A stretch of DNA of 57,919 nucleotides from contig CACPAS010000004.1 of assembly GCA_902632055.1 (NCBI GenBank), positions 1 to 57,919 on the forward strand, read 5' to 3'. This document shows positions 156-57,917 of this stretch, piece by piece. This DNA comes from an uncultured OCS116 cluster bacterium (lineage in GTDB: Bacteria; Pseudomonadota; Alphaproteobacteria; Rhizobiales; TMED25). Both the position numbers and the translations under genes were made by a program. The notes below the pieces were generated by a model that did not search any database, had not been told where the DNA came from, and was given only the letters and a program-made list of their open reading frames with translations. The first letter of the stretch is position 1; every line of letters begins with the position of its first letter.

Positions 156-171
156 ATGGATAAGATAGGCC

Positions 172-1227
172 ATGAAAAAAATTGTAAACTATTTATGCGA
201 ACCTAGATTGCGTATTAATTCTATATCATGGAAAATTGGTAATAAAAAAATACTTGATGACATCTCATTCAGCTTGTTTCCAGGAGAGGTCCTCTGCTTA
301 TTAGGTGACTCCGGCTGCGGTAAGACATCGCTATTAAGAATTATAAGTGGTCTGGATAAACAGGATAGCGGTGAAATTCACATCAATGAAGAAACTATTT
401 CTTCAATTAATCTGAATATTCCGCCAGAGTCTAGACCTGTTAGTCTAATCTTCCAAGATTACGCATTATTTCCGCATTTGACCGTGTACCAGAATGTAGC
501 ATATGGACTTAAGGATCTAAATAAACGGCAAAAGAAATTTAAAATTAATAAAATCTTATCGGATCTTGGTTTAATTCAATATTCAGAAAAATATCCCCAT
601 GAATTATCGGGTGGAGAACAGCAGAGGGTAGCTCTCGCAAGAGCAACTGCACCAGAGCCAATAATACTTCTAATGGATGAGCCTTTTTCAGGCTTGGACA
701 GGTCACTACGAGAATACATTCGAGAAGAAACGATCTCTGTTCTGAGGAATAGCGAGTCTGCTGTTATCCTAGTTACGCATGATCCCGAAGAAGCTATGCT
801 GATGGGTGATAGAATTGCCTTAATGAAAGATGGTAAAATAATACAGATTGGATCTAATGATGAATTAATTTTTCAACCCGTAAATGATTACACAGTTAGT
901 ACATTTTCCAATGTTAACACCTATAATACTAGAGTTCAGTCTAACAAAGTCAAAACCCCACTTGGGGAATTCGAAGCCTCAGATATAGAGGATGGTAACG
1001 AAGTGAAAGTTCTTATCAGAGATCAAGCTTTTGATCTTACATCACCGTCAAAAAAAAATTGCTACATTGTAAAACAAATTGATTTTACAGGCGAAAAAAC
1101 ACGAATCCAACTAACTCCAAGAGACTCAGGTGATATTATAAAAATAACTGTTTCAGGTGTATCATCGGTAAAAATTAATGATAATATTGGTCTAACTGTA
1201 GATGAACGGTTTGTTCATATTTTTTAA
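172..1227 (+). CDS. ABC transporter ATP-binding protein, FbpC/PotA (Fe3+/polyamine) type
   Basis: Walker A GDSGCGKT, FQDYALFPHL, signature LSGGEQQR, Walker B LLMDEP, TOBE-like C-terminus. Confidence 0.85.
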   Translation: MKKIVNYLCEPRLRINSISWKIGNKKILDDISFSLFPGEVLCLLGDSGCGKTSLLRIISGLDKQDSGEIHINEETISSINLNIPPESRPVSLIFQDYALFPHLTVYQNVAYGLKDLNKRQKKFKINKILSDLGLIQYSEKYPHELSGGEQQRVALARATAPEPIILLMDEPFSGLDRSLREYIREETISVLRNSESAVILVTHDPEEAMLMGDRIALMKDGKIIQIGSNDELIFQPVNDYTVSTFSNVNTYNTRVQSNKVKTPLGEFEASDIEDGNEVKVLIRDQAFDLTSPSKKNCYIVKQIDFTGEKTRIQLTPRDSGDIIKITVSGVSSVKINDNIGLTVDERFVHIF

Positions 1228-7488: not shown

Positions 7489-8886
7489 ATGGAATTAAAA
7501 TACGACGTTACTATTATTGGTTCTGGTCCCGGTGGCTATGTTGCAGCAATTCGTTCTGCACAATTAGGGCATAAGACGGCAATAATTGAAAAAGATAAAC
7601 TAGGTGGTATTTGTCTAAATTGGGGTTGTATACCGACAAAAGCACTTTTAAAATCCTCTGAAGTTTACACTACAATGAAAAAATCTGATTACTATGGAAT
7701 CACTGCAAAAAACGTAAGTTTCGACTTTGATAAAATAATAGATAGATCTCGAGGTGTTGCCGCTTCACTCTCAGATGGAATTGGCTACCTATTAAAAAAA
7801 AATAATATCGATTTAATTATTGGGAGTGGGCAAATTTTAGATAAGAATAATATCAAAGTTGAAACTGAAAAAAAACAAACAATTATCTCGTCAAAAAATA
7901 TTATTATTTCAACTGGCGCACGCCCAAAGGAATTGCCAGGTATAAAATTCAATGAGGATATTTGGTCATACAAACAAGCAATGGTACCAGATAAAATTCC
8001 GAACTCAATACTTGTAATTGGTTCAGGCGCCATTGGAATTGAATTTGCAAACTTTTATAATGCAATCGGGACCACTGTAGATGTTGTAGAACTTGCAGAT
8101 AAAATTCTGCCGAGCGAAGATGCGGAGGTATCTGAATATGCAAAAGCTGAGTTTGAAAAACAAGGTATAAACTTTCACTTGACTTCTCATGTGGATACAA
8201 TAACAAAAAATAAGGGTAAATTGAATATTGAGCTGGTCAATAACGAGAATAGTAAACGAGCTAATCTTAAAGCTGATAAAATTATAATGGCGGTTGGTAT
8301 AACTGGTAATATTGAGAATATTGGGTTGGAAGAAAATGGTATAAATACAATTGATGGTCATATTGAAACAACTGAGTCAATGCAAACAAATATTAGAAAT
8401 ATATATGCTATAGGAGATGTTGCAGGTGCACCATGGTTAGCTCACAAGGCTTCTCACGAAGGTGTCATTGCCGTAGAGCATTTATCAGGAATGGATACTC
8501 ACCCAATTGAAAAAAGTAACATACCAGGTTGCGTATATTCTTCTCCACAAATTGCATCAATCGGATTATCTGAGTACGATGCAAGAAATAAGTATGGAGA
8601 TGTAAAGGTTGGTAAATTTCCTTTAATTGCAAATGGTAAGGCAAAAGCAATTTCAAATGATACTGGATTTGTAAAAGTAATATACGAGAGCGCTACAGGT
8701 GAATTACTTGGCGCCCATATGATTGGAGATAGCGTTACTGAGTTAATTCATGGTTACGCAATTGCAAAAAATATGGAAGGCACAGAAGAAGATATTATAA
8801 ATACGATATTTCCACACCCAACAATTTCAGAGTCATTGCATGAAGCCGTTCTTAGCGCATACGATATTCCAATTCATTATAAGTAA
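7489..8886 (+). CDS. lpdA: Dihydrolipoamide dehydrogenase E3
   Basis: [26 protein letters not shown]. Start moved to ATG 7489 (MELKYDV). Confidence 0.96.
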
Positions 8887-38506: not shown

Positions 38507-39100
38507 TTATTTTCTGCCTTCGTTTTTTAATGCCTCTTCCGTAGCACTATCATAGTAGTCACTGAATTCCTTTTTAGATTTACCGACGTGTTCCGCGAAC
38601 ATTTCTCGAGTTGAATAATTTTTAACCAATTTATCAGGGTTCCAAATATCTGAACGCGCAACTGCTTTTGCACAATGTAGGTATATTTCGTTAACTCTTA
38701 TGATTAGTGCAGTTTTCGGCTTTTCTCCGTTCACAGCCATTTTTTCTAATAAATTTACATCTCTAGATATTTCAGCTACACCCCTAATTCTAAGGACTTC
38801 ATTAATACCTGGTATTAGAAACATAACCGCAACTTTCGGGTTATCCAGAATATTTATGTATGAGTCGAGACGATTATTACCCGATCTATCTGGTATCGCA
38901 ATTGTATTATCATCCAAGACATCGACAAATCCAGGGAAATCGCCTTTGGGAGAAACATCACCGTCTGTACCCAGAATTATAAAGGGTGATTTGCTGATAA
39001 ACTCCCTACAATGATGATCAATTTTATATTGAACCTTTGCTATAGACGTCGGCCTTGGTTCTCTGTATAGGTTTCTTAAATCCTCATAGTTTATAGACAT
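38507..39100 (-). CDS. Pyridoxamine 5'-phosphate oxidase-like FMN-binding protein (MSMEG_1061 type)
   Basis: DVSPKGD-x-PGFV, PDRSGNNRLDS, FLIPG...LRIRG, YLHCAKA. Start moved to ATG 39100. Confidence 0.85.
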   Translation of the reverse strand: MSINYEDLRNLYREPRPTSIAKVQYKIDHHCREFISKSPFIILGTDGDVSPKGDFPGFVDVLDDNTIAIPDRSGNNRLDSYINILDNPKVAVMFLIPGINEVLRIRGVAEISRDVNLLEKMAVNGEKPKTALIIRVNEIYLHCAKAVARSDIWNPDKLVKNYSTREMFAEHVGKSKKEFSDYYDSATEEALKNEGRK

Positions 39101-39110
39101 TATTTTACCT

Positions 39111-39728
39111 TTATAACGATTGGATCTCACGTTTATATAATGCATCTATTTGATCACCATAAGATGATATCTCATTGTTGATGTCATATTCAATTATTTT
39201 ATCAATTTTTTCAGCTTCAATTATAATAATATTATTGTATTCCCCTTCAACGGTTACATACCTTCTAAGAGGTAATTCGCCTCCGTTATGTATATCAGCA
39301 ATGAAATTAGAATGATATTTTTGGATATCAACATCAGAGATATTTTGTCTTGAGATCCTAATATAATCTAAAAAACCATTATGATCTTTTTCTATCAATG
39401 GTGGTATAAGTGTGAGAATGTATCTAGATGGGTTCTGAAACCTCTCATGAAACTTCATGTCTAATTGCGATCTATTTTCTCGTAACTTTTGATAAGGCTT
39501 ATCATACAGGTAGACAATATTATCAACTTCATAAAGTGTAAGAAATTTTTGCCCATCTCCACTTACTTTTTCAAAGCATGCGCAACTATTAAAGCCTATT
39601 TTTAATCTAGCCGGAAACATTTCATTTAGAAGCCATGGATGAAATTCTTTTTGATCTTTGCAATCTAGATCACAAAATATGGCAAGCAGCCCTGATCCAT
39701 TTAATGGTTTATTTGTGCATTTTATCAT
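39111..39728 (-). CDS. Hypothetical protein, DUF4286/EthD-like dimeric alpha-beta barrel
   Basis: Pattern D...EF-x2-W-x3-E-x2-P-x-R-x3-GF...F-x2-LYE resembles that family; start uncertain. Confidence 0.5.
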   Translation of the reverse strand: MIKCTNKPLNGSGLLAIFCDLDCKDQKEFHPWLLNEMFPARLKIGFNSCACFEKVSGDGQKFLTLYEVDNIVYLYDKPYQKLRENRSQLDMKFHERFQNPSRYILTLIPPLIEKDHNGFLDYIRISRQNISDVDIQKYHSNFIADIHNGGELPLRRYVTVEGEYNNIIIIEAEKIDKIIEYDINNEISSYGDQIDALYKREIQSL

Positions 39729-45467: not shown

Positions 45468-45636
45468 TTCATATTCCTTTTATTGGCATAGTACATTTAT
45501 AATATAGATACTTGGTTAGCTTTAGCAAGTCTATAAATGTTCAAATTTCATATCATTTATGAAAAAATACGTTAATCATTATTTTAACAGTTAGGTTTAT
45601 AATATTAATTTATGTTATTATTACATGTTGCATATT

Positions 45637-46257
45637 ATGCCGAGTAAAACCAAAAAAATTATGATAATATTTGGCCATCATGATACAGAGCAATCCTTCA
45701 ATTCAGCTATAAGGGATACATTTATTGAAGAGGCCTCAAGGATCGGTCATACAATTGATCTTGTGAATCTCTTCGAAGAGAAGGAACAGCTCCCATTCTA
45801 TACGACTAAGATTAACCCACCACCAAAAATAGTTCTCGAATATAGAAGACGACTTGAAAATTGTGATATTATGTTTCTAATTGGCTCTTGTCATAACCTT
45901 AGATTAAATTCAATCCTAGAAAACTGGGTAGATTGGGTCCTGCATCCAAAGTGGTTTTTTAGTTATAGGACTATGTTCCCTGGGAGTAAGTATTTTAAGA
46001 ATTATGGATATCCAGTTCCTGGAGCTCTGAAGGGTAAAACTGGGATTGTATCAATCACATATGGTGGTCCAATGATAACATATTTTAATTTCTCGATTTT
46101 TGACAACATACCCTACAGACGTATAAAGAAGTCTGTATTTAAACTTGGCGGATTAAGAACGAAATACCTCAGATTTTATTCAATCTTACCTAATTTAAGT
46201 ACAGAAAAGTTTGAGAAACACATGTCACGAGTTAGAAATTTGGCAAGATCCCTCTAA
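45637..46257 (+). CDS. Flavodoxin-fold NAD(P)H oxidoreductase (MdaB/KefF-like)
   Basis: I-x2-GH...SFN, W-x-DWV, LKGK, TYGG; start uncertain (45625 or 45637). Confidence 0.7.
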   Translation: MPSKTKKIMIIFGHHDTEQSFNSAIRDTFIEEASRIGHTIDLVNLFEEKEQLPFYTTKINPPPKIVLEYRRRLENCDIMFLIGSCHNLRLNSILENWVDWVLHPKWFFSYRTMFPGSKYFKNYGYPVPGALKGKTGIVSITYGGPMITYFNFSIFDNIPYRRIKKSVFKLGGLRTKYLRFYSILPNLSTEKFEKHMSRVRNLARSL

Positions 46258-46258
46258 T

Positions 46259-46699
46259 ATGAAATATGATCACGCATTAAAATTAAGGAGAGAGAAAATT
46301 ATTAAAAAAATTACAGAATTCGCAATATCTCACTGGCTATTAAGAATTCCTCTGGTAATTGTATTTATTCAACAAGGATTAGCAAAATTTCCAGCAAATA
46401 TAGATGATGCACAAGTATATGAATTACCGTACCTAGTCTGGTGGTTTGTTGTCCAAGGAGAGCTTGGTTCAGGCTTAGGATTACTCGTGGGGGGCTTGTT
46501 TCTTTTTTTTAACGAAAAGTTTTCTTGGTTAGGTGATCTAATCACAAGGTTTAGTGGATTTACAATTGGTTCGATCATGACTGGTGTTATCTGGATTGGG
46601 CAACCAGACTCTCTCACTGATGTGCTTCTTTACGATAACTTCCACGTTATATTATGGTTTGGTGGTTTATATTTTGCAATGCGAGGTAACAGGATATAA
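46259..46699 (+). CDS. DoxX family membrane protein
   Basis: WLLR...F-x3-G-x2-K, E-x3-G, about 4 TM helices; start uncertain (see finding). Confidence 0.65.
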   Translation: MKYDHALKLRREKIIKKITEFAISHWLLRIPLVIVFIQQGLAKFPANIDDAQVYELPYLVWWFVVQGELGSGLGLLVGGLFLFFNEKFSWLGDLITRFSGFTIGSIMTGVIWIGQPDSLTDVLLYDNFHVILWFGGLYFAMRGNRI

Positions 46700-46714
46700 A
46701 TCAACTCCAAATTA

Positions 46715-47368
46715 CTATATTTTGCGGGACTCAAACTCATTTATCTTCCTAAGCTGCTCGTGTCTGTAAATGCCATGTAATTTATAAACAAAAATGCCGA
46801 GCACGATAACATATAAGATGAGTATGAGAAAATTAACACCAGCGATGTAGTTGTAGCAGCCGTGAACTATTATTGGAATTGAGAGAGAGTAAATAATATA
46901 TTTCTCCCCGCCTCTAAACACATATAATCCAAAATAAAATCCCATTATTATCCCACACCCCGCGTGTAATGGAATAGCGGTAAATGCCCTTATGAGCGCT
47001 AAAGTACTTGCCTGCATCCCAAAATACTCAGCACTATAGACATAATTAAAATTCTCTAAAGTAGCAAAACCAAGTGATATTAATGTACCGTAAACAATAG
47101 CGTCCATGGGCTCATTAAAATCAATCTTATTTCTAAGGAATAGATATAAGGCAGTGAATTTAAGAGATTCCTCGGTAAGGCCCGCAAGGTATGTCATATC
47201 AGTCTCCCCAATGAGTATAGTATTAATGATGCCGGCCGGGATGCATAAAAATACACCAAGGAGAAATGTACGCCTTATCATATTCATTGGTTCTGGGAAC
47301 CTATCAGATTTGATGATGTAATAAAGAATAAGAAAAGGAGGTAATATCGTAAGAGTAATGAGTATCAT
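46715..47368 (-). CDS. PrsW family intramembrane protease
   Basis: D-x2-PEP, GLTEESLK, D-x2-VYG...GFATLEN, H-x3-G, HG-x-YN. Confidence 0.88.
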   Translation of the reverse strand: MILITLTILPPFLILYYIIKSDRFPEPMNMIRRTFLLGVFLCIPAGIINTILIGETDMTYLAGLTEESLKFTALYLFLRNKIDFNEPMDAIVYGTLISLGFATLENFNYVYSAEYFGMQASTLALIRAFTAIPLHAGCGIIMGFYFGLYVFRGGEKYIIYSLSIPIIVHGCYNYIAGVNFLILILYVIVLGIFVYKLHGIYRHEQLRKINEFESRKI

Positions 47369-47375
47369 AATTAAG

Positions 47376-47573
47376 TTATTTCATTAGATTAATGATTATC
47401 GTTAAGACGATACTTATTATAATACAGGTTACAACAGGAAAGTAGAATGAAGAATTACCGAATTTGAAAAATAAATCACCAGGCAATCTGCCAAATCCTA
47501 TCTTTTTTAAAAAAGGATAAACTAGCGCAGCAGCAATAAAAATAAGACCTATTATTAATAAAATCTTCTGCAT
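47376..47573 (-). CDS. DUF2905 family small membrane protein
   Basis: GRLPGD...FYFP-x2-TC-x3-S signature. Confidence 0.85.
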   Translation of the reverse strand: MQKILLIIGLIFIAAALVYPFLKKIGFGRLPGDLFFKFGNSSFYFPVVTCIIISIVLTIIINLMK

Positions 47574-47592
47574 TTTTTACAGTGAATTGATG

Positions 47593-47727
47593 CTAATCAT
47601 CTTCTGTTTCTAATATTTTTTGGTGTCGATCAACAGTTTGCTCTAATACATATAGTTTATTCCATAACCATAAGTTCATAAGTATTAATCCAAAAATAAT
47701 TACGGTGCCAAAATTGCTAAATTCCAT
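47593..47727 (-). CDS. 44-aa single-TM small protein (not in ORF track)
   Basis: MEFSNFGTVIIFGLILMNLWLWNKLYVLEQTVDRHQKILETEDD*, with RBS AGGAGGG just upstream; fills the gap between co-directional genes. Confidence 0.7.
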   Translation of the reverse strand: MEFSNFGTVIIFGLILMNLWLWNKLYVLEQTVDRHQKILETEDD

Positions 47728-47741
47728 AATACCCTCCTAAG

Positions 47742-47957
47742 CTATTTTTGAAATTTACTATGAATATAAAGAGCAACTTTTTTCCAATACCTCAATGAAA
47801 AAAAAGTGAATACAAAAGCGAGCCAAAAAACAGAATCCATTAGTTGGTTAAGTCCTTCTTCTGCAGAAAAATCTACTGTGAAATACATTACAATAAGGCC
47901 AACTAAAACAGAAATAATAATATGTACAATAGTTGACTCAGTTTTTACATTATCCAT
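47742..47957 (-). CDS. Small two-TM hypothetical protein
   Basis: 71 aa, two hydrophobic helices, ATG start, co-directional with neighbours. Confidence 0.6.
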   Translation of the reverse strand: MDNVKTESTIVHIIISVLVGLIVMYFTVDFSAEEGLNQLMDSVFWLAFVFTFFSLRYWKKVALYIHSKFQK

Positions 47958-48064
47958 ATGACATATATAATAACTTATTATAAATTTACATTATAATTAT
48001 CATGCTATACGATTATTTTGTTTTGAAAATTAACAATAGCTAAATAGTTAACCAAGATCCACTC

Positions 48065-48583
48065 ATGAAGTATAAATATACAAACACTATAATTACAATC
48101 ATATTCTCCGTTATTCTAGCAAATATATATGTCGTAAAGCCAGCTAGTGCCACAAACATTGTATTAGATGGATATATACTACAAATGGATAAATCACAGG
48201 GATTTAATGACATTCTAATAGGTGCAAATTGGGATGTAATTGTAGAAAACTGTGAAATTATAGAACCGATTGAAGATATCGATAATTTTATGGATTGGTT
48301 TCCCTGCTATGGTGATGATGACCATTGGTATCAAATTGTGATGATTAACGGTCAGATCTCTGCGGTTGGATTAGAGCTAGGTATTCTTGATGGTAAAAAA
48401 CTTCAAACTTTAAAAGACAGTATAGTCACTATTCACGGCGATAATAATATCTATCCTTATGAAGAAAATACATTCATTCTTAAAAATGGAAATATTGTGA
48501 TAAATGGCCTCGAAGATGGATATTATCTATTATATTACCTTGATGATGCAAGTGCCGAAGAAATAATGAAAGAGATAAAATAA
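48065..48583 (+). CDS. Exported hypothetical protein
   Basis: Signal peptide ending ASA, acidic mature region; no family recognised. Confidence 0.65.
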   Translation: MKYKYTNTIITIIFSVILANIYVVKPASATNIVLDGYILQMDKSQGFNDILIGANWDVIVENCEIIEPIEDIDNFMDWFPCYGDDDHWYQIVMINGQISAVGLELGILDGKKLQTLKDSIVTIHGDNNIYPYEENTFILKNGNIVINGLEDGYYLLYYLDDASAEEIMKEIK

Positions 48584-48598
48584 ATTTCTTTTAAAGCG

Positions 48599-48973
48599 CT
48601 AATATAAACTACAATCAAAGGTATACATAAATACTTCAAGGGCAGCGCTAAAAGCAGATTTATTATACTTATAAGACTCTGTGTTATATACCGCAGGTCC
48701 AGTAAAGATATCTGATAATTGTGTTCTTGTTGTTCCATCCGGAATACAACTTGGATCGAGCTCATAAATGACATCCGCATAACCCTGCATCAGGCCATTA
48801 CAAAAATTTATCCAATCCATATCTGCACGTGTACAAACATCAATGGCATCATATGTGCTGATATATGTTGCCGACTTTGTGTTATCAGCGAAAAGATGAA
48901 AAAAAATCATCACAATTAAGAATATTGAGGTTTTTACAATTAGATTTATGCGTCGCATATTCTTAGTATTCAT
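48599..48973 (-). CDS. Rap1a/Tai-like periplasmic protein
   Basis: Signal peptide, C-x10-C-x-G-x3-G-x2-D...C-x-P-x3-T-x2-Q...A-x3-AL...F-x-C pattern. Confidence 0.7.
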   Translation of the reverse strand: MNTKNMRRINLIVKTSIFLIVMIFFHLFADNTKSATYISTYDAIDVCTRADMDWINFCNGLMQGYADVIYELDPSCIPDGTTRTQLSDIFTGPAVYNTESYKYNKSAFSAALEVFMYTFDCSLY

Positions 48974-49583
48974 TCATCAAGCATTTGCCCTGGGCGCGTT
49001 GAAAATCAGTACTTGATATGTAGGAACGGTACGAGCTGTCATATGTAAGCTTTTCAGAATCAGAATAGAGAGATATTTTAGTTGGCGGAAATCCAACATC
49101 AACATAACAAAATTTATGGTAAGGCTTATCATATTCATTTTTTTTAAATACATTTCCAGTGTGTACCGTCTGCTCAATATTTTTTGTATCAATAAAGGTT
49201 TGACTGCTAAAGATATAATAATCTTTTTTTACCTGGTCCTTTGATCCTGTTGTCACGTTATTAGTATCATTAAAATCTCTATTACTTTCGATCTCTTTAA
49301 ACGGCACTTTGGGGCTATTTTCCATGATCACCCTCTCTTCAACAATAACTTTTTCGATAACCTTTTCGCTCTTATAAATATGGTACGCATAAGCTGCTAA
49401 AAGTAGGAATACACCCAAGCAAACTATAAAAATTGATAAGCTCATGAGCCCCATTCTGATATATGCAGCCCTTATTTTACTACGAAAACTCTGAGCAAAT
49501 TTTTTTTCATCGTCAATAAATTGATTTACTGCAGAGAAATCATTAATCTCATAGCTATCTCTTGTATCTGTTGTTTCAACCAT
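48963..49583 (-). CDS. Single-pass membrane hypothetical protein
   Basis: One TM, then EKVIEKVIVEERV and a soluble domain with two Cys; overlaps both neighbours. Confidence 0.7.
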   Translation of the reverse strand: MVETTDTRDSYEINDFSAVNQFIDDEKKFAQSFRSKIRAAYIRMGLMSLSIFIVCLGVFLLLAAYAYHIYKSEKVIEKVIVEERVIMENSPKVPFKEIESNRDFNDTNNVTTGSKDQVKKDYYIFSSQTFIDTKNIEQTVHTGNVFKKNEYDKPYHKFCYVDVGFPPTKISLYSDSEKLTYDSSYRSYISSTDFQRAQGKCLMNEY

Positions 49584-51411
49584 TTTTCTTAGGGTCTTTC
49601 ACAACTTTTTTTATAAATCCATCTTCATGCAAGATATCTCTTATCGTGGGAACAGGAACATGGACAATCTCTTTTTTAATGATTTCTTTCGGAACTTCTT
49701 TTATTACAACTTTCTCTTCTGTTACAATTTTTGGAACTTCTACAATTTTTTCAACCTCTTTTTCAACAAACTTTGTACGTGGCTTAGAGGCATATCTGAG
49801 TGTTTTAATAAATAGTGATCTTATAGGTTTACGCCTCCTGCGATCCCTACTGTCTGCTGTGCGCAGAATTTCTGAACCTACAGCCACAGCTGAGCCAGCT
49901 ATCGCAACGATCCCTGCAATCATACCAAACCAAATATTTTCAGTAGTCTTTCGGCATTCTGGAGTTACATCACCGGCAGTTTCAGCACCGTCGCATACGT
50001 CTAGGAAACTAAAATGGGTTGCTAATAAGTAGACTAGTTTCGTACTTGTTTTGGTTTCTTTCTCAGCTTTAAGGTCATTAATGGCCTCTTTAATATTGTT
50101 TATATCTAGTTTCTTATCTTCTATTTGAAGTTGTTTATCTTCAAATTCTGCTAATTTATTATCATAAGAATTTTTTGCGAATTCTCTCTCTGACTGATTT
50201 TTAGCTTGTATTTCTTTTATATCTTCATCAATTTGAGAAATTCTAATATCAAGCTCTTCTGAAGATTGTCTCTTTATTTGTGAAATATCATCTTTCTTTT
50301 GTGCAATAAGCTGAGATATCTGCGTAATATCATCCGCAAATTTTTGTTCTGTTTGAATAATTTTTTCGTCTCTTTCACTCTCTACGAGTTCAATTTCATC
50401 CTTGGTTGCATTTCTGATTGGTTCTTTTTGCGCCTCATATTCCTCTATTTTTTCATTTGCGTCAGCTATTTCTCTTCTATTAACCCTTTTATCACCCTGG
50501 AATGCCTTTGCATTACCCAAGATCTCCTGGTTAAAATCCCTTCTCTCTCTTTCAAGGGCAATATTATTATCAATAGTTTCAATATCCTTATCTGCCCTTT
50601 CGTTAATTGTAGCAATCTTTATAGCTGCGTTTTCACTAATTTTATTAATTTCAGTTGTTTCATCACTTTTTAATTCAGCTAATCTTAATTCTAGATCTTT
50701 GAGTTCGCCTCTTTCTATTTCAGATGATCTTGTTTTTTGTATTTCAATTTCATCTTTGCGAATTTTTAATTGTGAGAGCTGTATGTCTTCATTATCGTTA
50801 ATATTTTTAATTTCAAGTTGGTAAGTGCTATCGATACTCACTTTTGTTAATGATTCAAGGTCGACAAGTTTTGCCTTGGCAAGCTCAAGTTCATCATTCT
50901 TAATACCTATATTTGTATCGAGAATTTGAATATTTGTATCACGAAGCGATGATATTTTGATTTGGCCGATTGTCATTGATATAAAAGCAACAAGCATCAA
51001 AATCGCCACAATCATAGATCCGCTAATTTTCCATAGCGTACTATTACCTCTATAGATAGAGATAATTAGCGGCACTCTTGCGAGCTCCACCAGCGCTATA
51101 ATCGAATAAATAAGTATTATGAAATTATTTTGTAGAGTCGATAATTCTAGCTCTGATTGGCTCATAGCAATATCAGCTAAACCGGTCCGACCCTCTTTCA
51201 TAAGTAATATACCAAGATATACACCTAGGGTTGCAACTGCAATTTCGATAAGTATTGCAATAATCAGTAGAACCTTTGATGCTTTCTGGTTATCGTAGGT
51301 AAATAGCCTATAAATAAAACTAAATATTGTCCCAAAAAATAGACGCAAGTAATGGATTATATATTTTGCAGGCTTAAACTGACTATTTTTATCTTTTTCT
51401 ATTTCTGACAT
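49576..51411 (-). CDS. Multi-TM, long coiled-coil protein with C-terminal V/E/K/P repeats
   Basis: About 3-4 N-terminal TMs, roughly 290 aa of E/K/I-rich heptads, another TM, then VEKEVEKIVEVPK...KEVPKEIIKKEIVHVPVP. Confidence 0.8.
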   Translation of the reverse strand: MSEIEKDKNSQFKPAKYIIHYLRLFFGTIFSFIYRLFTYDNQKASKVLLIIAILIEIAVATLGVYLGILLMKEGRTGLADIAMSQSELELSTLQNNFIILIYSIIALVELARVPLIISIYRGNSTLWKISGSMIVAILMLVAFISMTIGQIKISSLRDTNIQILDTNIGIKNDELELAKAKLVDLESLTKVSIDSTYQLEIKNINDNEDIQLSQLKIRKDEIEIQKTRSSEIERGELKDLELRLAELKSDETTEINKISENAAIKIATINERADKDIETIDNNIALERERRDFNQEILGNAKAFQGDKRVNRREIADANEKIEEYEAQKEPIRNATKDEIELVESERDEKIIQTEQKFADDITQISQLIAQKKDDISQIKRQSSEELDIRISQIDEDIKEIQAKNQSEREFAKNSYDNKLAEFEDKQLQIEDKKLDINNIKEAINDLKAEKETKTSTKLVYLLATHFSFLDVCDGAETAGDVTPECRKTTENIWFGMIAGIVAIAGSAVAVGSEILRTADSRDRRRRKPIRSLFIKTLRYASKPRTKFVEKEVEKIVEVPKIVTEEKVVIKEVPKEIIKKEIVHVPVPTIRDILHEDGFIKKVVKDPKKNG

Positions 51412-51469
51412 AACAATCCTTAATCAGCAAAATTCTATCACCAAATGCACATTTTGTTAAATAAATTGA

Positions 51470-51559
51470 TTTTGTTCTATCATGCTATGGATTTTTAAGA
51501 AATAATACAGGATCGTTTTGCTCGATAATTTGCCCTTCATCCATGAATATAATTCCATC
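51470..51559 (-). pseudogene. Remnant of a polar amino-acid ABC ATPase (AapP/BztD/GlnQ-type) C-terminus
   Basis: Minus strand translates DGIIFMDEGQIIEQNDPVLFLKNP*HDRTK against the recalled family tail DRVIFMDxGQIxEQNxPxxFFxNPQHERTK. In-frame TAG at 51485-51487; rest of the gene absent. Confidence 0.75.
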
Positions 51560-51616
51560 AGTGGTATTGAAAATATTCTAATGAATATTTTATTTAGTTA
51601 AAAAAGGTTTTGATAA

Positions 51617-52426
51617 TTAGTTTTCAAAGGATGCTCTTTGTCGTGCATAGGCACAATTCTTGCAGCTTGGATGCCCTGATGGTATGAAATTACTATTCAT
51701 ACAATCGACCATGTCAGATAATTTCTCGTCAACCCATGTTATATTCCACTCATATGGTATTAAATACTCCTCGAACTTCATTACGCCATTAAAATTATCA
51801 GCCAATCTATTTCCATTACAAACAACAAAGTAGCCTTCTAGATGAACCTCAAAACCCATCTCCTTTAACAGATATACATAGAAGTCCATTTGGATTTTAT
51901 AGTTTTGTTTGTAAACATCGCTGAGGTAGGTTATTGGAGTTACTTTCTTAGTTGAAGATTGTGATTTGTAGTCCACCACAACTAATTTATTTGTGTCAGT
52001 GTTTATCCAGATATCATCAACCCCACCAAAGAGAATAATATTTGATTTACCATATCGTGCTTTCAATCCATGATGCATTGAATCTCGCCATTTATCGATA
52101 TCCGGATGATCAAATGGAATAAAATGCTCAAGGTTATTTTCGGTGAATAGCCGATGTGGGATCTGCTTTTCACGACATTCATCAAATTCTCTTTTATACA
52201 ATATATCAGTAGCTTCATTAAGTGCCCAGCCAGGAGTACCAGGCGACTCTAGCCCAACAACTCTATCGAGGTAAAAGCACCTTGGACACGTTAAATAGTC
52301 AGAGAACTTACTTCTACTAATTTTAAAATCCTCGTTTTGATTTGGACTATAAATAGATGAATTTCTTGATCGTTTTCCTGTGGCCTCTACAAGCTCGAAC
52401 TTGCTATTACGTTTTAAATCAAGCAA
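51617..52426 (-). CDS. Solo Cas4-like PD-(D/E)XK nuclease
   Basis: S-x-S...CPRC, GGVDD, VVDYKS, Q-x3-Y, C-terminal CKNC; TTG start. Confidence 0.8.
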   Translation of the reverse strand: MLDLKRNSKFELVEATGKRSRNSSIYSPNQNEDFKISRSKFSDYLTCPRCFYLDRVVGLESPGTPGWALNEATDILYKREFDECREKQIPHRLFTENNLEHFIPFDHPDIDKWRDSMHHGLKARYGKSNIILFGGVDDIWINTDTNKLVVVDYKSQSSTKKVTPITYLSDVYKQNYKIQMDFYVYLLKEMGFEVHLEGYFVVCNGNRLADNFNGVMKFEEYLIPYEWNITWVDEKLSDMVDCMNSNFIPSGHPSCKNCAYARQRASFEN

Positions 52427-52541
52427 ATCTAATCTCCAAGGATTTGAAAAAAATTATCCTACAAGTTTATCAATTTATTATTTATTTATCAATAATATGA
52501 AACTACTTAATCTCATGTTATATTTCAAGATTAATTACTAT

Positions 52542-52570
52542 TAGACAATTATTGGATAACTATATATAAA
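52542..52570 (+). promoter_or_regulatory. Sigma70-type promoter of tRNA-Ser(TGA)
   Basis: TAGACA-N17-TATAAA ending 10 nt before the tRNA. Confidence 0.55.
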
Positions 52571-52580
52571 TAAATTTGCC

Positions 52581-52670
52581 GGAGGGGTGGCTGAGTGGTT
52601 GAAAGCACCGGTCTTGAAAACCGGCAACGGGGCAACTCGTTCGGGGGTTCGAATCCCTCCCCCTCCGCCA
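52581..52670 (+). tRNA. tRNA-Ser (anticodon TGA)
   Basis: 90 nt; acceptor GGAGGGG/CCCCTCC, anticodon arm CCGGT-CTTGAAA-ACCGG, long variable arm, GGTTCGAATCC, discriminator G, encoded CCA. Confidence 0.97.
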
Positions 52671-52717
52671 TTCAAGACTTGAGACTGCCTGCCCCACAAA
52701 ATCTTTAACCCAAATAA

Positions 52718-52747
52718 TTGACATTACTTATAATTTTCAAATATTAT
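52718..52747 (+). promoter_or_regulatory. Sigma70-type promoter upstream of AIPR
   Basis: TTGACA-N18-TATTAT, 34 nt before the ATG. Confidence 0.5.
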
Positions 52748-52781
52748 TAATAATAATACTTCTATTGTTTGGATTTTTGTT

Positions 52782-54527
52782 ATGAGTATAAACCAGTTTA
52801 AAAACGTTTTGAAAAATTACATTGAAAAATGGTGTGATAAAAACGGTCAGGACTTTAGTAACTCAAAATCGCGTGGAAATGCCTTTGAAGATTTCATATT
52901 TGAACTATTAGTCAAAAGATATGATATTGAAGATGCATCAGAGGACGAAAACATATTCAGGACAAATGAAAAGGGTATAGATATTATAATACCACCCAGT
53001 GATAATTCTCCATATTTTATTGTATGCCAATGTGAACACGGTGGTTTTGGGACTAAGACGAAAGATACAATAGATAAAGATAAAATGACAGGTTTCTTCA
53101 ATAGATTTGGGGATATTACTTTACCCGACTGGATTGAAAATAGAGAGGAATTGCAGTTAGATTATCGTAATAAGTTAATAGATCTTCGAATACATATTGA
53201 TCGTCATTTACCTGTTAAATGGTTATATGCATCGAATAAACGTATAGGAAATTCGTCCTCAGAACTAGATGATATCATTAGGAAATATAACTATAAAACA
53301 TTATACCCATCAGTTGAGTTTGAAATACTCGACATAGATGAACTTACTGCCCTCTTCATGGAAACTGAAAAAATTCAAATGGAATACCCTGACAAGGTTG
53401 AATTTAATCACGGAGCAAATAAAGGTATTTATGATAATTCAGGTCACAAATTTTTTGTGGGGCTCATTAAAGCAAATGTGATAGTTGATTGGTACAAAAC
53501 CCACAAGGAGTCACTATTTGAACAAAATATCCGAACACTGCTAACAAAAAATAGAATTAATACGGATATGGCATTGACAATTACAAATGCTCCAGGTGAT
53601 TTTCGGCATTTCAATAATGGAGTTTCTGCAATTTGTGAAAAGCTGGAATATGATGAGGAATTAAGGAGAGTTTCTGCAAAAAAATTCAACATAATTAATG
53701 GAGCACAAACTGTAGGAACACTTTTTGAGCAGAGGAACTCAGGAAAAATAGAGGAAGTTGAGGTTCTATTGAGAATTACTGCAGTTAAATATTCAGACAA
53801 ACTTAGTAATGATATAACAAAATACAATAATACCCAAAATGCTGTTTCATCTGCTGACTTTAAATCTAATGACGAAATCCAAATATGGCTCGAAAAAAAA
53901 TTTAATGACTACGATTATCCTAAATATTTTCGCAAGATTGTCTACAGAAGAAAAAGACCTTATGCCAGAGGTAGTAAAAGTGAATATGCCTTGAGTATCT
54001 TAGAATTTGCAAAAATAAGAAGAGTTATTCTGCAATCATCAGCCACGCAAAATTCTAATCCAAATTTGGTATGGAAAAGTAAAGAAGATGGTGGGTGCTA
54101 TGAAGAAATTTTCCCAAATTCGGGGATACTCGATAATAAAGAATTTGAAAAATTTAATTTTATGTTCAACGTTTACAAAGAAATTGAAAGAAAAATAAAT
54201 GAAGAAAGAGAAAATAATAAAGAAAGAACATCTTTAAAAAGAATGGTCGCTCTTGGCCTTGAGGCTTTTAATAAATTTTGGATAGATAATAAAGAAGATT
54301 TTGATAATTATGCTGAAATCGAGAAAGGGAATGCTGACGCAAAAAAAGTTCTAAAAATCTTCTGGGCGCATTTTTATAGAGCCTTAGGAAAAATCTACGA
54401 TAATGAAATAATTGATGGGTCCACAACAGCCTATGCATTCGTTAGAAGTGATAACCTAACGAAAAGGGTGGTTAGTAGTACAAATGAGTCATACCAGCTT
54501 CAAAAAGAATTAAACGAAATTCAATAA
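52782..54527 (+). CDS. AIPR family protein (abortive infection phage resistance)
   Basis: LFEQNIR, IN...TI...P-x2-F-x2-FNNG, IINGAQT, I-x3-NN-x-QN-x-V-x3-D; restriction-endonuclease-like N-terminus (GID). Confidence 0.85.
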   Translation: MSINQFKNVLKNYIEKWCDKNGQDFSNSKSRGNAFEDFIFELLVKRYDIEDASEDENIFRTNEKGIDIIIPPSDNSPYFIVCQCEHGGFGTKTKDTIDKDKMTGFFNRFGDITLPDWIENREELQLDYRNKLIDLRIHIDRHLPVKWLYASNKRIGNSSSELDDIIRKYNYKTLYPSVEFEILDIDELTALFMETEKIQMEYPDKVEFNHGANKGIYDNSGHKFFVGLIKANVIVDWYKTHKESLFEQNIRTLLTKNRINTDMALTITNAPGDFRHFNNGVSAICEKLEYDEELRRVSAKKFNIINGAQTVGTLFEQRNSGKIEEVEVLLRITAVKYSDKLSNDITKYNNTQNAVSSADFKSNDEIQIWLEKKFNDYDYPKYFRKIVYRRKRPYARGSKSEYALSILEFAKIRRVILQSSATQNSNPNLVWKSKEDGGCYEEIFPNSGILDNKEFEKFNFMFNVYKEIERKINEERENNKERTSLKRMVALGLEAFNKFWIDNKEDFDNYAEIEKGNADAKKVLKIFWAHFYRALGKIYDNEIIDGSTTAYAFVRSDNLTKRVVSSTNESYQLQKELNEIQ

Positions 54528-54746
54528 AGAGGCAAACAAGTTTTTACTATATTATCTGCGGGACCATGATAATTTAATTTAAATTGTCATCCTACATTTC
54601 GCATAATAACCTGGGAACGAGTTAATCATGTCTTTCTTTGCTTTACCTATTGCGTATACTTACATCACGCAATTAAGCGGTTCCTGTGATAAATATCCAA
54701 ATTATTGATATATCATAAATTAAGTTAGGGTTATAATAAAAGAGAT

Positions 54747-55430
54747 ATGGATCTTATTAAATACAATACCCTTGTAATGAACGAAGGTGGAATTAACTTG
54801 CAACGCGGCATGAACTTTGGAATTAGAGGTTCCTATTCGATAGTGTTAATGTCAGTTGAAAAAAATGCGCCATATGCTGATGAAGTATTTGATGACGGGA
54901 TAATAAAATATGAAGGTCATGACGCTGAACGTGTACCAAAAGAACAAAAGAAATTGATAGATCAGCCACTTGCCTATAGCTCCGGCACCCCTACTCAAAA
55001 CGGTAAGTTTTACGATGCAGTAATGCAATTCAAAAAAGGTGAAAGAGAAGCCGGAAAAATAAAAGTATATCGAAAAATAAGAGCGGGTATATGGGTTGAT
55101 ATGGGCTTTTATGATTTAATCGATGGCTATTTACAAAATGATGGAAATAGAAATGTATTTAAATTCATTTTAAAACCAATCAGTAATGTATTTGAACCAG
55201 ATGCTGCCGATAATATAGAAATTGATCACAACAGACTTATCCCAGGATGGGTAATGCAAGAAGTGTATATAAGAGATAAAGGCCAATGCCAACAATGTGG
55301 CGCAAAAGATAATTTACATTTTGATCATATCATACCATATTCAAAACATGGTTCATCAAAAGACCCTAAGAATATTCAATTACTTTGTGCGCGACATAAC
55401 CTAAAAAAAAGCAATAAATTAGTCTATTGA
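54747..55430 (+). CDS. HNH endonuclease with N-terminal SRA/PUA-like domain (putative modification-dependent nuclease)
   Basis: C-terminal RD-x3-CQQCG...DHIIP...N-x2-LLC-x2-HN-x2-K. N-terminal SIVL...Y-x-D...YEG...DQ...N...KVYR follows the SRA/YDG motif order. The HNH call is firm; the SRA call is tentative. Confidence 0.75.
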   Translation: MDLIKYNTLVMNEGGINLQRGMNFGIRGSYSIVLMSVEKNAPYADEVFDDGIIKYEGHDAERVPKEQKKLIDQPLAYSSGTPTQNGKFYDAVMQFKKGEREAGKIKVYRKIRAGIWVDMGFYDLIDGYLQNDGNRNVFKFILKPISNVFEPDAADNIEIDHNRLIPGWVMQEVYIRDKGQCQQCGAKDNLHFDHIIPYSKHGSSKDPKNIQLLCARHNLKKSNKLVY

Positions 55431-55442
55431 ATGAGTTTAATA

Positions 55443-55532
55443 GGAGGGATGGCTGAGTGGTTGAAAGCACCGGTTTCGAAAGCCGGCAACGGGGTAACTC
55501 GTTCGGGGGTTCAAATCCCTCTCCCTCCGCCA
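55443..55532 (+). tRNA. tRNA-Ser (anticodon CGA), near-duplicate of 52581-52670
   Basis: 90 nt; acceptor GGAGGGA/TCCCTCC, anticodon arm CCGGT-TTCGAAA-GCCGG, GGTTCAAATCC, encoded CCA; 83/90 identical to the TGA copy. Confidence 0.9.
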
Positions 55533-55538
55533 AGCTTT

Positions 55539-57917
55539 TTAGAAATCCCACTCAAAGTCTAAATAGAATTTATTTGAGTAATCAAGGTCTACTCCCCCGC
55601 TCTCAAATTCATATCCAAGACCAAAACTATACACATCCATAGACTCGCTAGACTCTTTAAACAGATCGATGCCAATTCCTACTTTCCAAAAATCTTCAAC
55701 CTCTGTTTCTTCATCGATTGTATATGTTACAGGATCCGTTTCAGATGGATATTCAAGTTCAATTTCAGACTCACTACCAAATGCTAATCCATATTCAAAT
55801 TTAACCCACGGTAAATAATTATTATCATTATGACTATAGACCAAACTGATGTCTGCACCCACCGATACATTTGCCCTATGTGATGTTTGCTCGCTGATAT
55901 TCAACGAGGTATCGCCTCCGGTTTCTGTATAGCTGTCAAATTCGGTCACACTAAATTCACCTTTTGCATAAGGAGATACAATTTTTTGTTCATCTTCGGT
56001 GCTATTACCTCGTACCGTTAATGATCCAAACACCTGATTAGCAGTCCTTTCACCAGAGAGTACCTCCCCTATATCTGTTCTTGTCGTGTCAAAATTAAGG
56101 TTACCAACACCTAGAACATACTCAATCGTTGCTTCATCTATTAACGGTATATCTTGATAGCCATATTGTTTAGAACCGTAAAGTGATAAAGCGTAATTAT
56201 CCGATTTCACTTTGGACTCATCAGATCCAACTTTCATATCATCTGTTCCGTATGACAGTGAAATTCCAAATATTGAGTCGTAATTTGTATTATGTCTATC
56301 AATACCAAGATATACAGCTTCTGACTGAATATCATGAGGGTTGAGCCCATCGACGTTCGCAAGAGTGATTTCACCTGTGACCCAAGCGGCCCAGTCATTA
56401 TCAATATTTAACTTTGATTTGAGCATATTTGTATATTTTTGCTTAATATCGATAATTTCATTTTTATATTCACGCGTAAGTTCTGTTGGTATAACTGCAA
56501 TTTCTTCATTCATAAATGCGTCAAATTTTTCTAGGCACTCCTCTCTCACAAACTTACTAAGACTTTCATTGCAGTCGTCTTCACCACTTACCGAAACCAG
56601 TTCATCGACTGCTTTTTCTGATAATCCAGAGAGCCATTCAGTGGCATCACTAGTGGTTTCAATATTCTGATCATTATTTACAAGCTCATCTAGGAACTTA
56701 TTATTGAATTTTATTTTTAAGTCGTATTGATTTTTGTCAACATGCGACATGCGGTTTAGCCAATTTAACCTGTGCCCTACAGCATCCATATTCTTGAATG
56801 CCCAATTGGAAGAAATTGTTGACATAGCGTCGAGTATTTCAACAACATCGTCTTTTTCTGTTGGGTCTGTTAGCCTTGTTCTTGTTTCAAAATTAAGTAC
56901 GGTATTCGATGTCACACCTGCAAAAGAGTTACCACTTTCATCATCAAACGCAGTTGCCTGAATTAGTATATAATACTCAGTTTCATAATCCAGATTATCG
57001 GTTAGATCAATAATTATCGTTGAAGTTCCGGTTCCTGTCACTTGTGCACTTGTGACATCAATTGTTTCTACGATGCTATTATCATCTGATTTATATATGA
57101 TAATATTTCCACTCTCTACATCGACATCTTCACTAAAAGTTATTTCAATATTTTCATCAATATCTACATTCGTTGCATTGTCAGTCGGTATAGTTGCGGT
57201 AATTGTTGGATTTGTTGTGTCATCGTTATCATTAATATAATAGGTATGTACGATGTCTGAACCCAAAGTCGTTTCAGTAGGATTTGATAAGGTGATAATA
57301 ACAGTTTCATCTCCTTCATCCAGATTATCATCAACAATACCAGCGATTGTTATTGTTCCTGTTGTATTGCCGGCGGTTATCGTTAATGTACCATTAGCAA
57401 GGGTATAGTCGGTACCACCACCTGTTGCGGTTCCAGTCACTGTGTAATCTACTGTTATGTTTGAATTATGGGCAGACGTTAAACCTACCGTGATAGCTGC
57501 TGATGATGTAGACTCAAGTCCACTAGAGCTTGTGGCATTGAAATTTATAATAGGTAACTCATTATCAGTAATTGTGTAGGTGTGTGTGTCATCTGATCCA
57601 AGTGTTGCGTTAGTTGGGTTGGATAGCGTAACAATTACGGTTTCGTCGGACTCATCTAATGTATCATCAACAATACTTGCGATTGTGATCGTTCCAGATG
57701 TGTTGCCCGCTGCAATTGTAAGCGTTCCATTAGCAAGGGTGTAATCTGTTCCGCTGCCGGTTGCTGTACCGGTCACCGTAAAGTCAACTGTAACGTCTTG
57801 TGCGGAAGCCGCAGATAGATCAACCGTGAGAGCCTTAGAGCTTACTGACTCTGCACCATTTGAGCTTGTTGAATTGAAGTCGATAGTTGGCGCGGAGTCA
57901 TTGTCAGTAATGGTATA
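55539..57917 (-). CDS. Autotransporter adhesin with Calx-beta repeats and an Ig-like domain (5' part outside window)
   Basis: Frame stays open to the window edge (YTITDNDSAPTIDFN...). Calx-beta D-Y-x5-TL...DD-x2-DE-x-DET-x3-TL, Ig-like PTDNAT...ITFSE, beta-barrel ending YLDFEWDF. Confidence 0.85.
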   Translation of the reverse strand, partial: YTITDNDSAPTIDFNSTSSNGAESVSSKALTVDLSAASAQDVTVDFTVTGTATGSGTDYTLANGTLTIAAGNTSGTITIASIVDDTLDESDETVIVTLSNPTNATLGSDDTHTYTITDNELPIINFNATSSSGLESTSSAAITVGLTSAHNSNITVDYTVTGTATGGGTDYTLANGTLTITAGNTTGTITIAGIVDDNLDEGDETVIITLSNPTETTLGSDIVHTYYINDNDDTTNPTITATIPTDNATNVDIDENIEITFSEDVDVESGNIIIYKSDDNSIVETIDVTSAQVTGTGTSTIIIDLTDNLDYETEYYILIQATAFDDESGNSFAGVTSNTVLNFETRTRLTDPTEKDDVVEILDAMSTISSNWAFKNMDAVGHRLNWLNRMSHVDKNQYDLKIKFNNKFLDELVNNDQNIETTSDATEWLSGLSEKAVDELVSVSGEDDCNESLSKFVREECLEKFDAFMNEEIAVIPTELTREYKNEIIDIKQKYTNMLKSKLNIDNDWAAWVTGEITLANVDGLNPHDIQSEAVYLGIDRHNTNYDSIFGISLSYGTDDMKVGSDESKVKSDNYALSLYGSKQYGYQDIPLIDEATIEYVLGVGNLNFDTTRTDIGEVLSGERTANQVFGSLTVRGNSTEDEQKIVSPYAKGEFSVTEFDSYTETGGDTSLNISEQTSHRANVSVGADISLVYSHNDNNYLPWVKFEYGLAFGSESEIELEYPSETDPVTYTIDEETEVEDFWKVGIGIDLFKESSESMDVYSFGLGYEFESGGVDLDYSNKFYLDFEWDF

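Follow-up and report, generated by a model that had tools for sequence, protein, structure and literature searches.

The subject of this analysis is a pair of serine transfer RNA (tRNA) genes near the right end of a 57,919-nt stretch of DNA, called the window here, which is contig C4 of a metagenome-assembled genome of an uncultured OCS116 cluster bacterium (1.03 Mb, 42 contigs, 36% GC, 77% complete). In the best reading of the sequences, the second gene, tRNA-Ser(CGA), would be a younger duplicate of the first, tRNA-Ser(UGA), that acquired a switched anticodon in the ancestry of some members of the genus. The gap between the twins and the DNA around them appear to form an integrase-free hot spot of gene turnover, with different cargo in different genomes. 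The whole account, which consists of the loss of an older CGA gene, the duplication of the UGA gene with an anticodon switch, a gap of gene turnover, acquired defence candidates, and read-through expression of the second tRNA, is in our judgement probably correct. For the comparisons, the UGA gene was used as the query against 40 relatives. The assembly of the window is designated G000, the genomes of relatives are numbered G001 and upwards, and individual loci carry L numbers. Genomes of the genus are approximately 0.9–1.6 Mb in size.

ARAGORN detects exactly two tRNAs in the window, both tRNA-Ser and both on the forward strand. The tRNA-Ser(UGA) gene, a UCA/UCN reader, is located at 52581..52670, and its paralogue with the switched anticodon, tRNA-Ser(CGA), at 55443..55532. 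Both are class II tRNA-Ser genes with a long variable arm and a serine anticodon, and they score 63.0 (UGA) and 59.1 bits (CGA) with the Rfam tRNA model, above its gathering score of 29 bits, with zero non-canonical pairs flagged in either twin. The original prediction described two 90-nt copies that differ at seven positions, and the alignment confirms all of them (7 G>A, 33 C>T, 35 T>C, 40 A>G, 53 C>T, 71 G>A, and 80 C>T). The position-by-position identity is 83/90, and a repeat search returns the same 90-nt pair at 92%. The structural placement of the changes proposed at that time is also correct. Positions 7 and 80 pair in the acceptor stem, so the change from G-C to A-T is compensatory, while position 40 gives a U.G pair in the anticodon stem, position 53 is located in the loop of the variable arm, and position 71 in the T loop. 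The anticodon stem-loop holds three of the seven differences, including TGA to CGA.

The serine tRNA set of the assembly, as identified by ARAGORN, contains one gene each for the anticodons GGA, UGA, CGA, and GCU. The question raised in the original prediction, whether this is the only Ser-CGA gene of the genome, is thus answered for the assembly: it is the sole one. Since there is a single gene per serine anticodon, the twins alone read UCA and UCG in the assembly and are not spares. UCG is the rarest serine codon and makes up 7.6% of the serine codons in open reading frames (ORFs) of at least 250 amino acids. The UGA gene is 100% identical in eight genomes of the genus (G000, G001, G002, G005, G006, G008, G013, and G014), and the CGA gene of the window is identical to that of G006.

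The origin of the CGA gene is indicated by its similarity to the UGA gene. In the six genus genomes from which both genes were recovered, the within-genome identity of UGA and CGA is 82–85/90 (83/91 in G005). The corresponding value for eight outgroup genomes from the same order is only 63–70/90, which places the similarity of the window twins above background. In an IQ-TREE maximum-likelihood tree of 57 serine tRNAs, built on 90 columns, the eight CGA genes of the genus cluster together (support 99/93); their group is the sister of the genus's eight identical UGA genes (98/90) and lies nested among the UGA genes of the family. The nine other CGA genes fall in two separate places of the tree.

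With an outgroup CGA gene as the query, an old-type CGA gene was recovered from three sister genera, represented by G016, G017, and G018. The notion that the whole family outside the genus is devoid of CGA is therefore wrong. The same query finds no old-type CGA gene in G000, G001, G005, G012, or G013, two of which are single contigs, and an old-type gene is likewise not found in G009. No CGA gene was found in G009 (95% complete) or G015 (97% complete). The sister-genus genome G018 (L042 and L043) has, besides its old-type CGA gene, two different tRNA-Ser(UGA) genes on separate contigs; a contamination of 3% is reported for this genome, and its two UGA genes may reflect a strain mixture or a separate duplication.

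Several stages of the process can be seen across the genus. In G009 there is just one UGA gene, which is more divergent but is preceded by the upstream block also seen in the window, and directly behind it lie approximately 100 nt of the 3' end of the autotransporter gene. Judged by its tRNA, G009 would be an early-diverging member of the genus, and its layout fits the state expected before the duplication. The acceptor pair 7-80 is G-C in UGA and also in the CGA genes of G013 and G005, G.U in the CGA genes of G003 and G010, and A-U in the CGA genes of G000, G001, G006, and G008. The substitutions C32U and U34C (standard numbering) are common to all eight genus CGA genes, which vary among one another, unlike the identical UGA genes. 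In G014 (L039, contig C13, approximately 163–241, reverse strand), a decayed tRNA-Ser copy is preceded by the same epimerase gene as in G006, where the CGA gene sits. The decayed copy matches tRNA positions 1–61 at 75%, has a partly deleted T arm, and is not called by ARAGORN.

From the sequences, the phylogeny, and the synteny, we infer the following order of events. The original tRNA-Ser(CGA) gene would have been lost in the lineage leading to part of the genus, and the UGA gene adjoining the autotransporter gene would have been duplicated. The downstream copy, by the autotransporter gene, would have acquired U34C plus C32U and become a new CGA isoacceptor. This copy would have diverged later, including the acceptor change from G-C through G.U to A-U, with the essential UGA copy left unchanged in eight genomes. 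The first interpretation in the original prediction, that a duplicate evolved into a new isoacceptor, agrees with the tree and the identities, but the event belongs to the genus and is separate from the cassette. Its corollary, that the loss of the cassette by recombination would cost the cell a tRNA, is weak since the CGA gene looks dispensable in relatives, as indicated by the decayed copy in G014, the failure to find the gene in G009 and G015, and the low share of UCG (7.6%).

The spacer between the twins differs from genome to genome. The twins have the same orientation in all six genomes in which they are linked (G000, G001, G006, G008, G013, and G014), and these six genomes carry five different cargoes between conserved flanks. 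The spacer is 1132 bp long in G006 and contains an NAD-dependent epimerase gene; the same epimerase gene, followed by the decayed second copy, occupies approximately 1.1 kb in G014. In G001 the spacer of 1445 bp holds a 415-amino-acid ORF of no family on the opposite strand, and in the window the 2772 bp are taken up by an AIPR/AbiU-like gene and an SRA-HNH nuclease gene. The 6205-bp spacer of G008 encodes a T5orf172 protein, a DEAD-type helicase, and an MmeI-type IIG restriction-modification enzyme (PADLOC E 1e-285). The spacer of G013 would be 11.5 kb long if its single contig is circular, and it contains metabolic genes, an epimerase gene, and a SIR2 gene. In the complete genome G005 the twins are unlinked, 309 kb apart and inverted, with the CGA gene located between leuA-like and ABC-F genes.

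The borders of the variable DNA coincide with the tRNA genes. On the right side, blastn homology to relatives resumes at the 5' end of the CGA gene, at 55443 for G001 and G006 and at 55439 for G008. The conserved right flank is formed by a Calx-beta/Big_5 autotransporter gene (55539..57917, reverse strand, open at the window end), which was identified with Pfam and is 84–90% identical to its counterparts in G001, G006, and G008 in blastn. On the left side, homology consists of the UGA gene together with 19–50 nt upstream and approximately 2 nt downstream. A scan of metagenome contigs for the CGA-specific pattern yielded 16 loci. In the genomes and these loci taken together, at least eight different sequences abut the 5' end of the CGA gene and at least six abut its 3' end. 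A UGA gene is present in 0/16 of the metagenome CGA loci within the upstream flank of up to 2 kb.

The original prediction also held that no integrase is present, and this stands: the window has no tyrosine recombinase, and the only one of the assembly (PF00589) is on contig C2. Pfam finds no recombinase or transposase among the scanned ORFs of the interval 43.5–57.9 kb, and there are no partial tRNA repeats in the window. The earlier suggestion that the twins could serve as homology arms in cargo exchange agrees with the diversity of the cargo and with break points located at the tRNA borders, and homologous recombination would then be the driver of the turnover. The twin pair is special neither to this genome nor to defence genes.

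There are also observations that speak against this account. The absence of the old-type CGA gene derives from BLAST-type searches, and some of the genomes are incomplete (77% for G000). Twins with an empty spacer occur in no genome, and an in-place tandem duplication is not directly visible. The block of approximately 70 nt that precedes the CGA gene in G001, G003, G005, G010, and five metagenome loci has no clear kinship to the block upstream of UGA, and the flank similarity between the copies is short and weak, extending over 14–30 nt upstream (G013 and G010 compared with the UGA gene of G000). Either the duplicated unit had no promoter or its upstream block diverged afterwards. The break points hug the 5' end of the tRNA in at least seven different non-native contexts, and because they lie at the tRNA ends, ordinary recombination in the flanking genes explains them poorly. 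A promoter scan gives no site directly upstream of either tRNA, even in G001. Lastly, in four public sequencing runs, which gave short pieces over 51400–56400, no contig bridges the junction between tRNA and cargo.

This last point raises the question of whether the contig could be an assembly chimera joined at the conserved tRNAs, with the AIPR-HNH cargo derived from a different strain or species in the population. The UGA sequence is shared without change by eight species and the CGA sequence is shared with G006, and both can act as assembly repeats; furthermore, contigs of runs X1 and X2 have other DNA upstream of 55443. On the other hand, the order of UGA, cargo, CGA, and autotransporter recurs in G001, G006, and G008, UGA, cargo, and CGA are also found in the single-contig genome G013, the GC content of the cargo (32.1%) can be set against that of the window (34.5%), and pieces of the cargo are present at 0 differences in four runs from three studies. 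A chimera is consequently improbable. Another proposal is that the CGA gene is the original orthologue, made UGA-like through gene conversion by the neighbouring UGA gene (concerted evolution). Such an exchange is conceivable given that the twins are close and in direct orientation in five genomes, and a possible example is the tRNA of metagenome locus L078 (1978–2067), a chimeric tRNA-Ser(CGA) with a CGA-type 5' half, a UGA-type 3' half, and two acceptor-stem mismatches (7-80 and 2-85), which has either arisen by recombination between the twins or is a copy in decay. However, the old-type CGA gene is unlike UGA in the D arm, the anticodon stem, and the variable arm, so conversion would have to replace nearly the whole gene and would be equivalent to a duplication. 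The CGA gene of G005 is equally UGA-like although it lies 309 kb away and inverted, and G009 has one tRNA at the site and no CGA gene that could be found. Gene conversion is thus a very poor candidate for the origin of the CGA gene.

A further possibility is that the twins came from an integration and not from a simple tandem duplication. A circular element carrying a full-length tRNA-Ser may have entered by one crossover within the tRNA gene, mediated by RecA or by an integrase since lost, with a full-length copy left on either side, and the twins would still be integrase-free attachment sites for cassette swaps. The lack of any genome with an empty spacer is in keeping with this, as are break points at the tRNA borders in at least eight upstream contexts and the mixed tRNA of L078. 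In G008, moreover, an insert is bounded by direct repeats of approximately 85 bp, the signature of a single crossover at a tRNA. The repeats (L032, contig C13, 4295–4377 and 6885–7018) comprise the leader and positions 1–39 of tRNA-Ser(UGA), and the 2.5-kb insert contains only a PIF1-like helicase gene of 711 amino acids, with the PADLOC candidate families PDC-S68 and PDC-M16A. The break lies within the anticodon loop, and the half that was displaced is the 5' one, in place of the usual 3' half. Against integration, no circular form, junction read, or integrase has been seen. Three joints are listed in the public-run contigs, but their sides are 23–29 nt long or their variable arms are foreign, and they are taken as tRNAs of other organisms. 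Crossovers in the tRNA body should also give many chimeras, yet the UGA sequence does not vary among eight genomes and most CGA copies keep their specific positions together; most cargo genes are without hallmarks of mobile elements. We therefore regard this origin of the pair as rather unlikely. The same holds, with a similarly small chance of being right, for the twins as a working cassette site at which host recombination would loop the cargo out as a one-tRNA circle and insert foreign circles by single crossover. If true, it would explain the break points at the tRNA borders, the 85-bp repeat of G008, and the half-CGA, half-UGA environmental tRNA. The survivor of such an excision must keep UGA, so the anticodon difference would penalise some deletion products and bias which cargo losses are viable. 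The second interpretation in the original prediction, a backup tRNA-Ser co-expressed with the cassette whose altered anticodon loop withstands tRNA-cleaving nucleases, draws on the three differences in the anticodon stem-loop and on the position of the tRNA directly after the HNH gene on the same strand. Yet the loop with U32 and C34 is the same in 8/8 genus CGA genes and 16/16 metagenome loci, whatever their neighbours and even far from UGA, and an equally similar CGA gene unlinked to defence genes, which had been named as evidence against the idea, exists in G005 at 309 kb from UGA. The cargo proteins are unlike known anticodon nucleases and match AIPR/AbiU and SRA-HNH DNA nucleases instead, and one lineage has let its CGA gene decay. 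A role as a protective backup has hardly any likelihood.

Under the duplication account preferred here, the CGA gene of the window would depend on its neighbours for transcription. The UGA gene is preceded by a block (52531..52580, forward strand) that blastn finds conserved with G001, G006, G013, and G009; the homology begins at 52562 in G001 and G006, at 52533 in G013, and at 52531 in G009. This block is presumed to be the promoter and leader of the UGA gene. The block of approximately 70 nt that precedes CGA elsewhere is missing in the window, and the HNH ORF ends at 55430, leaving the gap of 12 nt that was noted originally. The claim that there is no room for a promoter is accordingly upheld for the intergenic gap, but the HNH gene itself contains two weak promoter-like sites at 55286–55341. 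The scan for sigma-70-like sites returned 22 sites compared with 15.1 expected in shuffles, which is near chance level; the best consensus match of the region agrees at 11/12 positions and is located at 52718..52747 (forward strand), 35 nt before the AIPR start codon. The region scan gave no terminator-like site. Cargo genes on the same strand also hug the CGA gene in G006 (epimerase, 23 nt) and G013 (SIR2, 11 nt), while cargo on the opposite strand leaves approximately 160 nt before it in G001 and G008. The acquisition of the cargo may have removed the block found before CGA in other species. Given the loss of this block, CGA is most likely a product of read-through of the AIPR/HNH transcript or of a promoter inside the HNH gene, and would be released by RNase P and 3' processing. 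Transcription together with the upstream gene is, as an inference, the most likely route.

The first cargo gene of the window (52782..54527, forward strand) encodes an AIPR-family, AbiU-like protein of 581 amino acids, a candidate abortive-infection or phage-resistance gene. The AIPR domain is recognised by Pfam with an E-value of 1.2e-32 and 114.3 bits, compared with a cut-off of 25, and the PADLOC AbiU match (E 3.2e-31) extends over residues 141–563 and covers most of the profile. The protein is not MzaE, as its NCBIfam score of 45 bits is far below the cut-off of 1050. In a scan of the genome contigs for AIPR relatives, 42 pattern matches were obtained and 0 were confirmed.

The second cargo gene (54747..55430, forward strand) encodes a TagI-like SRA-HNH nuclease of 227 amino acids, which is the length of its relatives, and is a candidate modification-dependent (type IV) restriction enzyme. 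The HNH motif is at the C-terminus (Pfam HNH, E 1.3e-9, residues 181–224). With this protein, sequence-only and profile searches of the PDB returned only the HNH motifs of IscB; recognition of the SRA domain required a structure model, which was built from 20 homologues and has a pLDDT of 78. The best Foldseek hit of the model is TagI (6ghs, E 1.1e-8), which is matched over both domains, followed by ScoMcrA and the SRA domains of SUVH5/UHRF1; for the SUVH5 SRA domain the target-normalised TM-score is 0.65–0.67. Pfam SAD_SRA is matched by 2/20 homologues, with a best E-value of 2.3e-5. The model thus predicts an N-terminal SRA fold and a C-terminal HNH motif in one chain, as in TagI, but the identity to TagI and ScoMcrA (6ghs and 5zmm) is only 15–18%. 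The protein is also shorter than TagI (227 compared with 285 amino acids) and is without the sulfur-binding domain of ScoMcrA.

The HNH protein belongs to a large family (4592 relatives at E ≤0.001) that occurs in many bacterial and archaeal phyla. Among the 18 other genomes of the family, the AIPR gene and a full-length SRA-HNH relative are each found in none (0/18). A two-gene system of AIPR and HNH was considered and rejected, an AIPR relative being present within 4 kb at 0/80 HNH loci. A tie between the HNH gene and tRNA-Ser was rejected too, with a tRNA within 4 kb at only 9/80 loci and directly downstream at 0. What the original prediction called a defence cassette would be fairly labelled as two independent single-gene candidates. 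The AIPR/AbiU-like and TagI-like SRA-HNH genes are unrelated and probably horizontally acquired defence candidates. In four unrelated genomes an SRA-HNH gene is located 51–702 nt downstream of a tRNA (L097, Lys; L148, Gln; L151, Gln; L155, Val), which fits a gene that travels in tRNA-associated islands. In the Prochlorococcus locus L099, a tRNA-Ser(CGA) gene lies 2.8 kb upstream of the SRA-HNH gene.

The proposed origin of the CGA gene has precedents. In Pseudomonas fluorescens SBW25 the deletion of serCGA is viable and is compensated by a duplication of serTGA, and a later T34C switch that would re-create serCGA was proposed (Ayan et al. 2020, PMC7661048). As far as that account goes, the two cases share the same tRNA pair, the ability of UGA to cover UCG, and a duplication of UGA that offsets the loss of CGA. 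They differ in that the SBW25 events, as described, are large duplications in the laboratory with no switch observed, whereas the present case is a natural switch with single 90-nt copies and a variable spacer. The SBW25 duplications reportedly span 45–290 kb. It has been described that bacteria can gain tRNAs through duplication with anticodon mutation (Wald and Margalit 2014, PMC4041420). As in the cases presented there, two closely similar paralogues serve the same amino acid and differ in the first base of the anticodon, and the gained tRNA is an auxiliary one with C34. The five cases described concern pairs for Gly, Gln, and Arg, and the list does not include Ser UGA/CGA. Unlike in those cases as described, an older gene with the same anticodon has been replaced here, and intermediates and a decayed copy are visible. 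Duplication with anticodon switch is thus a known route in bacteria and one that had been predicted for precisely these two tRNAs.

The turnover between the twins can be compared with two kinds of known sites. It has been reported that 27% of transfer hot spots are without integrases or transposases and that their flanking core genes recombine more, and homologous recombination at the flanks was proposed as the driver (Oliveira et al. 2017, PMC5635113). The present site resembles these hot spots, as they are characterised in that work, in its turnover of content between conserved flanks, the enrichment of defence genes, the presence of a tRNA, and the absence of an integrase. It differs in that its borders are near-identical tRNA genes in direct orientation and its breaks lie at the tRNA ends and not in flanking protein genes. 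The second kind comprises islands with foreign genes directly behind a tRNA gene, a feature that is shared by the window. In genomic islands that are integrated at tRNA genes by an integrase, the far repeat is a 3' fragment of the tRNA, approximately 15–50 nt long. The window, by contrast, lacks an integrase, and its far repeat is a complete tRNA gene whose anticodon differs. No new kind of system is called for.

The locus would be of interest as a natural, multi-species record of the route that was proposed from the laboratory, in which serCGA is lost, serTGA is duplicated, and the anticodon is switched. The stages are spread across species as a single UGA gene, a near-ancestral CGA gene, the G.U intermediate, the compensated form, and a decayed copy. 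It also suggests that in small marine genomes a near-identical tRNA pair can frame an integrase-free turnover hot spot that collects defence genes, and that metagenomes may be mined for variable cargo with the twin tRNA pair as a useful anchor.

To the left of the twins, too, the DNA is variable. A segment of approximately 7 kb (45482..52561), delimited by blastn and by Pfam annotation of its ORFs, extends from a conserved aldehyde dehydrogenase gene to the UGA upstream block, and homology to G005, G002, and G014 breaks off at 45481 and does not resume before the tRNA. Left of the UGA gene, this variable DNA contains a PD-(D/E)XK, Cas4-like nuclease gene (51617..52426, reverse strand; Pfam PDDEXK_1, E 1e-10; PADLOC Cas4 models, E 3e-8), at whose site blastn gives no homology to G001 or G006. 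Beside it, blastn and ORF maps reveal a 90-nt relic (51470..51559) of the 3' end of a 248-amino-acid gene, with 87% identity to L031 and 79% to L033. The intact 248-amino-acid gene is located 4.7 kb upstream of UGA in G006 and G001. The relic appears to be the sole remnant of the transporter operon of G001 and G006, which suggests that the left side, where the Cas4-like gene now sits, has been replaced too. The same segment encodes a 611-amino-acid protein (49576–51411, reverse strand) with N-terminal membrane segments and a long charged repeat region, for which Pfam, NCBIfam, and PADLOC give no family match. Beside this gene, an ORF of 124 amino acids (48599–48973, reverse strand) scores 26.7 bits as a Rap1a immunity protein, compared with a Pfam threshold of 27.7 bits.

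Elsewhere in the genus, a block of SIR2, LysE, and AbrB-like transporter genes was compared across loci L034–L038, L077, and L079. It is located downstream of UGA in G002 and G005, and downstream of CGA in G013, in eight metagenome loci (class A), and in L079. The UGA and CGA genes thus seem to have swapped neighbourhoods during the history of the genus. In G005 (L037, contig C1), a 40-nt fragment at 8357–8396 with 88% identity to tRNA-Ser positions 22–61 is located 1.65 kb upstream of the unlinked CGA gene, beyond the ABC-F gene, perhaps as what remains of an earlier partner tRNA. Contig C7 of the window's own assembly carries a permuted, two-piece transfer-messenger RNA (38922–39239, reverse strand) with the tag peptide ANDNYAPVAVAA; the permuted form is a mark of alphaproteobacteria.

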